64,000 nt of DNA from Hormiphora californensis. Its lineage: Eukaryota; Animalia; Ctenophora. Under the pieces are notes generated by a model. The model worked only from the letters and a program-made list of their open reading frames with translations. It searched no databases and was not told the DNA's origin. Of the stretch, positions 56,044-60,206 are shown piece by piece. Location of the stretch: assembly GCA_020137815.1 (NCBI GenBank), contig CM035357.1, forward strand, positions 992,001-1,056,000, written 5' to 3'. The number at the start of each line of letters is the position of its first letter. Positions within the stretch are counted from its first letter, which is position 1. The position numbers and the translations under genes were made by a program.

Positions 56044-59000
56044 ATGCAGTCAACCATCTTTGTTTTGGCCCTTTTGGCTGTAGCAGCTGCTAAATACGAC
56101 CCTAAAAACTGTGAAGGTAGGTGACACACGGTACAACACACTTGACACTGACCACTGACCGACATGTTATCACAACATAATTTACACAATCGTGTATAAA
56201 CCAATGTACCATATCTTTCTATTGTTTACGTGTTGGCTTGGTTTGTGCAAATATGTGGAAATAAATGGAAGCTCCTAGCAACCTAACAACAGAAGGTTAG
56301 TGTAACAATCCTGCTTGAAATTCCATCCCAATTTGCTGTTTGACCTTTCACTAACATACGAACCTTGGTTATTAGCAATGCTCAGTTACGAGTCGAGTTT
56401 GTTTCTGGCGGTGGTCGGATCACTCCTATTCGCCGGATGTGCGTGGCTGTTCAGTTTCGGTAACAGTGTCGATATGTTCGATGAACTTAGACGGATGGAT
56501 AAGCGACAGGTGAGGAAAAGAGAAATATATTTTCCTATTTTAGAAGTGTTTTAGTATAGTGATAGAGTGTTACCCCTCCATTATAACTCGTTTTCCGTAG
56601 CTCAGTTCCTTCCATTCATATAACCCCGCCCGTGGTATTCTTCCCTCACTTTCCTTCCCTAACCTCACCTAACCTCACTATTCCTCCTTGCTACTCCTCC
56701 CCTAACCTTACGATCCCTCACCTGACCTCACCTAACCTCATTATTCCTCCTTGCTACTCCTCACCTAACCTCACTATCCCTCACCTCACCTAACCTCACT
56801 ATTCCTCCTTGCTACTCCTCCCCTAACCTCAAGATCCCTCCCTGACCTCACCTAACCTCACTATTCCTCCTTGCTACTCCTCCCCTAACCTCACGATCCC
56901 TCCCTGACCTCACCTAACCTCACTATTCCTCCTTGCTACTCCTCCCCTAACCTCACGATCCCTCCCTGACCTCACCTAACCTCACTATTCCTCCTTGCTA
57001 CTCCTCCCCTAACCTCACTATCCCTCACCTGACCTCACCTAACCTCATTATTCCTCACTATCCCTAACATCATCTAACATCATTATCCCTAACCTCATCT
57101 AACCTCATTATCCCTCCCCAGGTGATTTACCAGTTCCTAAACTTTGCAATGATTGTCAGTTCAGCTCTAATGTTGTGGAAGGGCCTCTTTGTGGTAACAC
57201 ACTGTGAGAGCCCCATTGTCGTCGTCCTCTCTGGCTCAATGCAGGTTAGATATACATTTATTATTGGGAGAACTGGGTACATTTTGGTCGCCTTTTTTTC
57301 CTTCTTTCTTATGCTCTGTTATCTCTCCCCACTCTGTCTTCTCTTCACAGCTACGTGTAATATACTCTCACTAACACCCCTCCCCCGGTTTCTCTCACTA
57401 ACACCCCTCCCCTTACAGCCGGCGTACTACCGTGGTGATCTGCTGTTCCTGTCAAACTACCCAGAACCAATTCGAGTTGGTGAGGTTGTGGTGTTTAGGA
57501 TCCCAGGACGAAACATTCCAATTGTCCACCGAGTCCTGAAGGTCCATGAGAAGGATGATGGGTAGGTGATGCGTGTGTTTGTTTGTTTGTGTGTTTTTTG
57601 TGTTTGTGTGTGTGTGTGTGTTCTGTTTTTTTGTTCGATAAAATTATTCTCTTTGGCCCCTCCACAATCACTGTTTTCGTACCAGTAAAGATTCAGTATT
57701 GAGAGTTGCGGTTCTTCTACATTTTAGTCTCCTTCCACCTTATCCCCAAATTGGGGCATCCCCAATCCCCATTCCCCAGTCCTGCTTCAGTAGCATCTTC
57801 TGGAGTAGCATCATTTCACTGTTTATACAAGATTAACCACATTGAAGTTCACCCCCCCCCCACTCAGATACGTGAAGTTCCTGACTAAGGGCGACAATAA
57901 CAACATTGATGATCGTGGTCTGTACAGCGAGGGGCAACTGTGGCTAGAGGAGAAGGATATTATCGGTCGTGCCAAGGTATAGAACACCATCCCTTATATC
58001 ACCTAATGTCATCCAATATCACCCAATATCCCCCTCTCGCGTTATCGGACGTGCCAAGGTCAGAAACACCCCCCTAAGATCACCTAATGTCACCCAATAA
58101 ATTACCACCACACACAAATTCTATCCAGGCTGATAAATTATTTGTTGGAGACCTAATTATTCCTTTATCGGCATTATTTTCTTTCATCTCAAGTCCTCTC
58201 CCACTACTTCTTGAGAAGGGAGAATTCCCCCTATAATCTGTATACAGGGAGAATAATCCCTATCCATACAGGTCCACCTTGGGACGCCACCTTCTACTAC
58301 TAACCTCACCCTTCCCCCTCTCTCACAGGGCTACCTTCCCTTACTACCTACTAACACACCCCTCTCTCACAGGGCTACCTCCCTTACTAACACACCCCTC
58401 CCCCACAGGGCTACCCCCCTACTACCTACTAACACACCCCTCCCCCACAGGGCTACCTCCCCTACTAACACACCCCTCTCCCACAGGGCTACCTCCCCTT
58501 ACTACCTACTAACACACCCCTCTCCCACAGGGCTACCTCCCCTACTAACACACCCCTCTCTCACAGGGCTACCTCCCCTACTAACACACCCCTCTCCCAC
58601 AGGGCTACCTCCCCTACTAACACACCCCTCTCCCACAGGGCTACCTCCCTTACTATCACACCCCTCTCTCACAGGGCTACCTTCCCCTACTAACACACCC
58701 CTCTCTCACAGGGCTACCTCCCCTACGTTGGAATGATGACTATTTTGATGAACGATAAACCCAACCTGAAATATGCTCTTCTTGGTCTTCTTGCCCTGTT
58801 CGTACTGATCAAACGAGAACAATAAACCAATGTTATACACAGCTGCTGCTTGGAATTGTTGTGACACAGCTGAGAACATGTTGCCACTTTGATGCACAGC
58901 TATAATAGGTTAAGCTCTAAATACTGGGTTCCCAATGTCCATCTTGCTGTTATGGAGGGTGCTTACCGCTGCTTTGAAGAGGAAGAGGAGGATTCTTTAT

Positions 59001-60206
59001 TCGTATAAACACGTTTAATTTTATTTAATTTGTCATATCCACACATAATATCCATTCTCAATGTTTCACCAAGGTGTCTCTTTAATGTTTTGAAAACTAA
59101 ACTACATCCACAACATGACAAACTTACAATATGACAAAGTAACAACCAACACACTACCATTACTTCCTATAATAAACCCCCTCCCTCTCTCTCTCAGTTT
59201 GTGTTACCTTCCTGGGTAAATTCAGAACTCAATTGGACGCCCTTGATGCCTCCGTTCAATCTAGCCCTGACAAGATTGAGAGTGAGCTAAGGAAGGCCTG
59301 CAAAACTAAGCAACCCAAAGATGAACGATTCGTAAGTGATACAATGATTTTGTTCTGAACAAGTCAATTTGTTCCGATCTTTACTCAATAAATATTTTAC
59401 CTTGTTTCAACTCTCCCTCCTCCCAATGTACCTTTACTACCAATTGTTAACTCTCCCCTCCTCCCAGTATATTCTATAACCAACTCTCCTCTCCTCCTAG
59501 TGTTGGTATATTGGAGCCACTGAGACCTCCCTTTACTACTTACTACCTAAACAATTGTTAACTCTCTCCCCTCCTCTCCTCCCTAGTGTTGGTATATTGG
59601 AGCCACTGACACCTCAGCTACTGGCATGACTCAAGTTGTAACTAAGCCAATGAGCTTCCACAAGCCCGTCGAGAAAATCTGTGGTGACCTGTACAAGAAA
59701 GACGCCCAGATTTGCGACCTCAAATACGGTAAGAGATTGTGTGTTTGACGTCGATTGCTTTTTCGTGTGTGTAGAACTACAGAGATAGCCAGTATGTGTT
59801 CCCATTCGATGCCTCTAAATTTAATGGCACTGAAGGGCATGAAGCAAGAGCCGCGCGCGAACTAGCAAATGAATGACTCAAGTGTATGAAAAGTACAGTG
59901 CGATGCAGTTGGTGCGCGCGGCGCTATGTGTTATACGTCAGCGTATACATTTGCTGTACATTGTACAATGTGTACATCCCTCCCCCATTTTGTACATTCC
60001 ATCCAACCCTCATCTAACCTCCATCCCATTTCTTTCCAGAAAAACAAATCGATCTGAAGACAGTGAACATCAAGAAACTGAAGGTGAAAGACTTGAGGAA
60101 GATCCTAGAACAGAACGGCCAAGATTGCAAGGGTTGCAGTGAAAAGAGTGAATTCGTTAAGAAAGTGGAGGCTATCGCTAGGGAACAGGGCAGAACTGAA
60201 TTGTAG
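56044..60206 (+). CDS. MANF: MANF/ARMET (MANF/CDNF family) ER-stress protein, 4 exons
   Basis: Exons 56044-56116, 59198-59331, 59587-59728 and 60040-60206. Signal peptide, [45 protein letters not shown]-terminal RTEL. Missed by the ORF track. Confidence 0.95.
56378..58825 (+). CDS. SEC11: Signal peptidase complex catalytic subunit SEC11, nested in MANF intron 1 on the same strand
   Basis: Exons 56376-56509, 57122-57244, 57419-57561, 57868-57976 and 58712-58825. Motifs: [14 protein letters not shown] (Ser), RGDLLFL, IPIVHRV (His), [26 protein letters not shown]. The stop overlaps AATAAA. Confidence 0.95.
56655..57118 (+). repeat. CCTAACCTCAC-rich minisatellite (about 60-bp unit) filling SEC11 intron 1
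   Basis: Direct reading; many CTAAC branch-point-like motifs. Confidence 0.85.
58295..58726 (+). repeat. About 36-bp minisatellite made of the SEC11 last-exon acceptor junction
   Basis: About 10 extra copies of CTAACACACCCCTCTCCCACAG|GGCTACCTCCCCTA before the true acceptor at 58711. Confidence 0.92.

Follow-up and report, generated by a model that had tools for sequence, protein, structure and literature searches.

The locus described here lies in a window of 64,000 nucleotides (nt) from the ctenophore Hormiphora californensis (contig CM035357.1, positions 992,001 to 1,056,000; coordinates below count from the first nucleotide of this window) and holds two genes for endoplasmic reticulum (ER) proteins, MANF and SEC11, both on the + strand. 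Exon chains rebuilt from the window place all five exons of SEC11 inside intron 1 of MANF, with GT-AG boundaries at every intron of both genes. MANF has four exons and encodes a protein of 171 residues with ARMET_N and ARMET_C domains. Its coding exon 1 (56044–56116) contains, as judged by eye, the signal peptide together with the start of the mature protein and ends in a phase-1 donor; it is followed by exon 2 (59198–59331; ARMET_N), exon 3 (59587–59728) and exon 4 (60040–60206), which ends in the KDEL-like C-terminal signal RTEL. SEC11 encodes 206 residues in exon 1 (56376–56509; ATG at 56378, with an additional N-terminal hydrophobic segment at about residues 7–27), exon 2 (57122–57244; membrane anchor and catalytic Ser motif), exon 3 (57419–57561; catalytic His motif), exon 4 (57868–57976; placed by its reading frame and by joints in RNA contigs) and exon 5 (58712–59042; stop codon at 58823–58825 and a 3' untranslated region reaching at least 59042). 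Between the MANF donor and SEC11 exon 1 lies a stub of MANF intron 1 of 259 nt (56117–56375, 61% A+T), a putative outron of SEC11, with a branch-like CTAAC at 56351 and a TTAG whose AG forms the acceptor at 56374–56375. The initial annotation had recorded these signals, the length of the gap and the phase of the donor along with the nesting itself, and coordinates and reading frames agree with it on each of these points.

The closest named protein to the window MANF is a Pleurobrachia bachei gene model (148 of 160 residues identical), a P. bachei gene model also matches residues 1–85 of SEC11, and the next-closest named proteins come from Mnemiopsis leidyi and Bolinopsis microptera. The MANF protein of M. 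leidyi is KAL5266486.1, and the SEC11 protein of B. microptera is XP_063685860.1. SEC11 shares 127 of 178 residues with SEC11A of Branchiostoma. In Pfam, the ARMET_N score of MANF exon 2 falls under the curated cut-off, and exons 3 and 4 pass for ARMET_N and ARMET_C. With the whole of SEC11 in one host intron and on the same strand, the pair has the form of a parallel nested intronic gene. The view that same-strand nesting is rare does not hold for ctenophores, since 2357 nested genes in 1654 hosts, many of them parallel, have been reported in Hormiphora (PMC8527503). The pair is a further instance of an arrangement already known as common in comb jellies.

Expression was followed in three public RNA runs (X1, X2 and X3), available as assembled contigs from related animals rather than the sequenced individual; two of them covered little of the stretch (shares of 0.07 and 0.05), and the contigs give no reading of transcript starts, ends, strand or levels, so genes were not ranked by depth. 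One X2 contig begins at 56005, includes the four MANF exons and joins 56116 to 59198, skipping 3081 nt. For SEC11, contigs join exons 1 and 2 (X1, X3), 2 and 3 (X1, X2), 3 and 4 (X1) and 4 and 5 (X1), so that all three MANF introns and all four SEC11 introns are bridged and both nested partners are expressed as spliced mRNA. MANF mRNA is spliced across the whole SEC11 gene, the own introns of SEC11 are removed, and the gene layout is thereby confirmed. The contigs contain no joint of 56116 to 56376, but with zero coverage over 56376–56402 this absence speaks neither for nor against such a joint. The MANF contig is unbroken across the end of exon 1; SEC11 exon 1 is uncovered in the same run, so this was not counted against such a joint.

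The 3' end of SEC11 was also traced. An AATAAA at 58821 overlaps the stop codon, as had been stated earlier, and this part stands. Its proposed role as a polyadenylation switch is rejected because a contig from an oligo-dT run extends about 216 nt beyond the stop codon and reaches 59042, leaving 156 nt to MANF exon 2, and because the motif is absent over the stop in both SEC11 mRNAs of relatives described below.

At two places in the locus (58315–58726 and 59485–59600), tandem duplication has copied a splice acceptor along with the opening codons of the exon that follows it. Ahead of SEC11 exon 5, the array at 58315–58711 repeats the acceptor and first codons ten times, and one extra copy precedes MANF exon 3, at 59501. 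At both places it is the last copy that the RNA contigs join to (58712 and 59587; the MANF joint is seen in one contig). SEC11 intron 1 is largely a 62-nt tandem array (56644–57115, 6.7 copies) with many CTAAC branch-like motifs.

A copy of the published ctenophore spliced leader (SL) lies outside both genes, on the - strand at 55107–55147, and matches it over 41 nt without a mismatch, a result reached by 0 of 100 shuffles. In all three runs contigs with unrelated loose ends are stacked very deeply on the copy, a pattern that a leader shared by many mRNAs would produce. The exact copy and the pile-up indicate that the organism has the leader, and 56% of Hormiphora Iso-Seq reads have been reported to bear it (PMC8527503).

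Acceptor composition, measured over 17 nt directly 5' of the last three bases, sets 56376 apart within the locus. Its pyrimidine fraction is 0.53 and its C fraction 0.18, as compared with 0.71–1.00 and 0.41–0.71 at the seven cis acceptors, all of which have a C-rich tract that 56376 lacks; the tract at 59198 is all pyrimidine. Loci of relatives were obtained by scanning metagenome contigs with the aligned N-termini of six relatives, which gave two strong matches (L001 and L002) and four weak ones (L003–L006, E 5e-5 to 2e-4). In L002, a spliced SEC11 mRNA, the initial 30 nt finish with TGAG and are separated from the ATG by 2 nt. Aligned end to end with the 3' end of the window SL copy, these 30 nt agree in 22 of 32 columns, a score reached by 85 of 10000 shuffles, and they are the top scorer among the 2005 30-mers of L002; against MANF exon 1 they stay at shuffle level (18 vs 17.5). 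From this likeness we consider, with moderate confidence, that the L002 leader is a variant of the SL. With this leader, the SEC11 ATG is directly preceded by an in-frame stop. A search of viral contigs returned 0 matches to it, and so no confirmation on other mRNAs of the same species.

L001, which is spliced and polyadenylated, is a SEC11 contig in which 535 nt precede the ATG; these include a branch-like motif, and AGs stand at 7 and 2 nt from the ATG. At least 528 nt are retained upstream of its acceptor, which suggests that transcription starts far upstream in that relative, and the contig looks like an outron-retaining precursor. An SL-like leader is thus found at the matching place in one of the two relatives' contigs and the outron is kept in the other, and the 2-nt gap from AG or leader end to ATG recurs in both; 56376–56402 is uncovered in the contigs mapped to the window. 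Taken with the leader of this one relative, the sequence around 56376 is best explained as a spliced-leader trans-splice acceptor, which had been offered as an alternative in the initial annotation and which we regard as probable for SEC11.

The reading that we prefer, at a rough probability of 0.45, is that SEC11 mRNA arises by SL addition at 56376 on transcripts from the MANF promoter. Transcription would start at MANF, where a CpG-rich region at 55745–56003 (+ strand) is the likely promoter: the observed/expected CpG ratio there is 1.82, in the top percentile of 1275 windows, as against 0.53 in the stub (background, 37th percentile) and 0.59 in the window, and the MANF RNA contig begins at 56005. 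A hexamer GACGTG at 55985–55992, 59 nt before the MANF ATG, presumably resembles unfolded-protein-response elements of the XBP1/ATF6 type. A transcript cut at the SEC11 3' end (about 59040) would keep a single free acceptor, 56376, which would take the leader; MANF exon 1 would be discarded together with the outron, and the SEC11 ATG would come to be preceded by an in-frame TGA and a G at -3, both supplied by the leader. In a read-through transcript, each internal SEC11 acceptor would pair with a nearer donor, and the MANF donor would choose the all-pyrimidine 59198 over the pyrimidine-poor 56376. A single MANF-SEC11 transcription unit seems plausible. The shared promoter is the weak step of this explanation; it is favoured because the CpG-rich region lies upstream of MANF and not in the stub, because L001 is transcribed from far upstream and because both products are ER proteins.

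Several observations weigh against this explanation. The acceptor tract of L001 is ordinary (pyrimidine 0.71–0.76), so a weak tract is not general and the argument from it is limited. Other A+T-rich 41-mers of the window score as high against the L002 leader as the SL copy does (33 vs 32), and much of the weight is therefore carried by the position of the leader; the leader itself was found in a single contig, from a relative rather than this species, and resembles the SL to a moderate degree. L001 and L002 contain no MANF sequence (12 MANF proteins gave only matches of 6–11 residues, the best with an E of 0.021 and antisense), so that the nesting rests on the Pleurobrachia group. SEC11 exon 1 is itself CpG-rich (1.51), as expected near a start site. 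Finally, an upstream donor blocks trans-splicing and drives cis-splicing in C. elegans (cited in PMC3074122), and this speaks against a precursor with the MANF donor still in place.

The strongest competitor is that SEC11 has its own promoter in the 259-nt stub, with a short outron and SL addition at 56376 as in an ordinary ctenophore gene, in which case the nesting would have no regulatory meaning. This is a serious possibility, if a slightly less probable one, and it is consistent with all of the SL evidence, with the CpG content of SEC11 exon 1 and with the abundance of parallel nested genes in Hormiphora (PMC8527503). It had been argued that 259 nt leave little room for a promoter, but this is not borne out: outrons in C. 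elegans can measure 65, 173 or 450 nt, which makes 259 nt room enough, and an unpaired acceptor is the normal SL substrate (PMC3074122). Speaking against a separate start are the background CpG level of the stub and the length of L001 upstream of its acceptor. A TATAAA at 56195, followed by a CCAAT, was considered as promoter evidence and set aside, because 2599 of 10000 shuffles of the stub contain a TATA-like hexamer.

Much less probable is a main SEC11 mRNA cis-spliced from 56116 to 56376, so that SEC11 would carry the MANF signal peptide, later removed by the peptidase complex. The initial annotation had proposed such a product as one arm of a cis-splicing and polyadenylation switch. The in-frame join that it described is correct and gives a product of 231 residues, although the frame would match by chance one time in three. 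The layout resembles that of unc-17/cha-1 (PMC3875643), in nematodes an upstream donor favours cis-splicing (cited in PMC3074122), and the hydrophobic segment at the N-terminus of SEC11 could act as a stop-transfer helix, in which case the catalytic domain would end up in the lumen once a signal peptide had been cleaved off. The recurrent 2-nt gap before the ATG also fits this model, but it is also explained by the G at -3. The L002 leader has an in-frame stop immediately before the ATG.

Among the 19 listed of 22 relatives in the two closest clusters, none carries an added signal peptide or is longer than 207 residues; of the 19, 14 begin at the Met that matches (54 contigs) and the other 5 are shorter, with 0 longer, a comparison that is no proof because gene callers may miss a 5' extension at contig cuts. 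A search with residues 1–60 among proteins of 113–361 residues gave 18 matches from 35 candidates, and the three that cover the extra N-terminal segment are 146, 206 and 207 residues long. A profile search of 1.84 billion representatives gave 23 matches, of which five are strong (E 5e-22 or better) and run on from exon 1 into intron 1. For one of these, the genomic P0172, which reads through 19 residues upstream, we enumerated the codons for possible AG positions: within 57 nt, there is room for an AG at just two distances from the ATG, 1 and 4 nt upstream, and neither is in frame with a phase-1 donor, a test that covers those 57 nt and assumes a conserved donor phase and nesting in that species. 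The frame match between the MANF donor and SEC11 thus does not look conserved in these sequences. With the SL-like leader of L002 and the unconserved AATAAA, these results speak against the proposed switch, for which there is no direct support, and the signal-peptide fusion is unlikely to be the main SEC11 product.

A side result concerns the N-terminus of ctenophore SEC11. It has about 25 additional residues with a hydrophobic run of 21, and the distance from the Met to the RRMDKRQ-type basic motif before the usual anchor is 44–45 residues, as compared with a median of 19 among the 95 of 120 listed homologues that have a Met start and the motif. The extra segment reaches a 19-residue hydropathy of 2.13, is nearly invariant among relatives and matches no Pfam family. 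The RefSeq model of Bolinopsis SEC11 (153 residues) does not contain it. As far as the named members suggest, the helix would be restricted to ctenophores. The relative P0133 (94% identical) matches human SEC11A of the structures 7p2p and 7p2q (SEC11A/C) from residue 30 to the end (E 6e-82). Its AlphaFold model has a mean pLDDT of 59.8, with 43–56 over residues 1–40, and shows, at this low confidence, one helix at 4–39. The first helix of E. coli leader peptidase takes its N-terminus out without a signal peptide, and by analogy the extra helix most likely would insert the N-terminus in the lumen in the same way. It offers a small separate lead for signal-peptidase structure.

Since this helix would make a fusion to the signal peptide topologically viable, a minor fusion form is still conceivable. 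One could then imagine a single ER-stress promoter with three outputs: MANF by skipping to 59198, SL-bearing SEC11 by cutting at the SEC11 3' end and leader addition at 56376, and a minor SEC11 with signal peptide cis-spliced from 56116 to 56376. The extra helix would keep the last form oriented, and the ratios could shift under ER stress. We consider this combined scheme improbable as a whole.

That the nesting is an assembly error is highly improbable: the region does contain tandem repeats and no single contig spans the locus, but the splice signals are all clean, and the P. bachei MANF model P0139, which lacks the true exon 1, has Ala-Val-Met-Glu before its exon-2 residues, four residues that the window encodes, followed by a phase-1 GT, in the SEC11 3' untranslated region at about 58947–58959. 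A second assembly therefore likely shares the 3' junction of the nesting, the junction on which this comparison bears. The nesting likely confuses gene predictors. The public models P0121, P0139 and P0154 look wrong, with Bolinopsis SEC11 lacking exon 1 and P. bachei MANF given a false first exon, and the P. bachei SEC11 model reads into intron 2.

The surroundings of the two genes were also surveyed. Since no GT follows the leader, the SL copy at 55107–55147 is not an SL RNA gene. It opens a - strand unit (54120–55147) in which the exact leader is followed by 18 nt and an intronless open reading frame (ORF) of 315 codons with no Pfam match above the cut-off, and which may be a retro-inserted SL-bearing mRNA or a gene like a transposon ORF1 (a likeness judged by eye). 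A short (ATT)n-type repeat is found about 250 nt downstream. A second, partial and diverged copy of this ORF on the - strand (55326–55706; 30% identity over 137 codons, E 3e-8) lies immediately upstream of the MANF promoter region. A single-exon ORF of 431 codons at 51733–53034, by eye a seven-helix receptor without Pfam match, has a weak AG 3 nt before its ATG (pyrimidine 0.53, C 0.24), a candidate SL acceptor. Further upstream, an ion-channel gene is present at 45725–48876 (Ion_trans, E 1e-11; TRP-like by eye), and the sequence at about 48600–49480 appears duplicated at about 50660–51460. Rfam gave 0 matches across the window.

Comparison with known systems places the locus between several types. 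It is closest to the nested genes of Hormiphora itself, where likewise a whole multi-exon gene lies in one same-strand intron and the 41-nt leader is identical (Schultz et al. 2021, PMC8527503). That paper calls the processing of the many same-strand nested genes of ctenophores unresolved, and the word 'operon' is absent from its main text. Across animal phyla, nested exonic bases at a level of about 10% have been described as normal (PMC10282587). Among the papers listed by a literature search, titles and the beginnings of abstracts showed none on the nesting of the MANF-SEC11 pair, which the supplementary nested-gene list for Hormiphora may already include. In C. elegans, unc-17 (VAChT) and cha-1 (ChAT) have the same-strand intron-1 layout with a shared first exon; there the shared exon is untranslated and cis-spliced to both, whereas MANF exon 1 encodes the signal peptide and SEC11 appears to be SL-spliced (PMC3875643). 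The vertebrate pair CPNE1/RBM12 shares its promoter and 5' exons, but unlike MANF exon 1 these exons are non-coding, and they are cis-spliced without a spliced leader (PMC2568002). In the Hydra RFC140/flp operon, a promoterless second gene is freed when the SL is added to an acceptor some hundreds of bases downstream, as found by experiment in a non-bilaterian; there the two genes follow one another in tandem, separated by a poly(A) site, whereas SEC11 is intronic and downstream of a live donor (PMC3273482). The tandem layout of an SL operon, with the upstream poly(A) site before the downstream acceptor, is not seen here, SEC11 being inside MANF and 3' of its donor. Despite this different layout, MANF-SEC11 may work like an operon.

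With two conserved ER genes, a donor 259 nt before a probable site of trans-splicing and 5' joints of three kinds that can be told apart, the locus makes a compact test case. A separate SEC11 start would make it an ordinary locus. Transcription of SEC11 from the MANF promoter would amount to an operon-like unit within an intron, and would depart from the rule in nematodes that a donor lying upstream forces cis-splicing. Should the three-output scheme prove true as well, SL addition would be a general device for freeing parallel nested genes from the transcripts of their ctenophore hosts.

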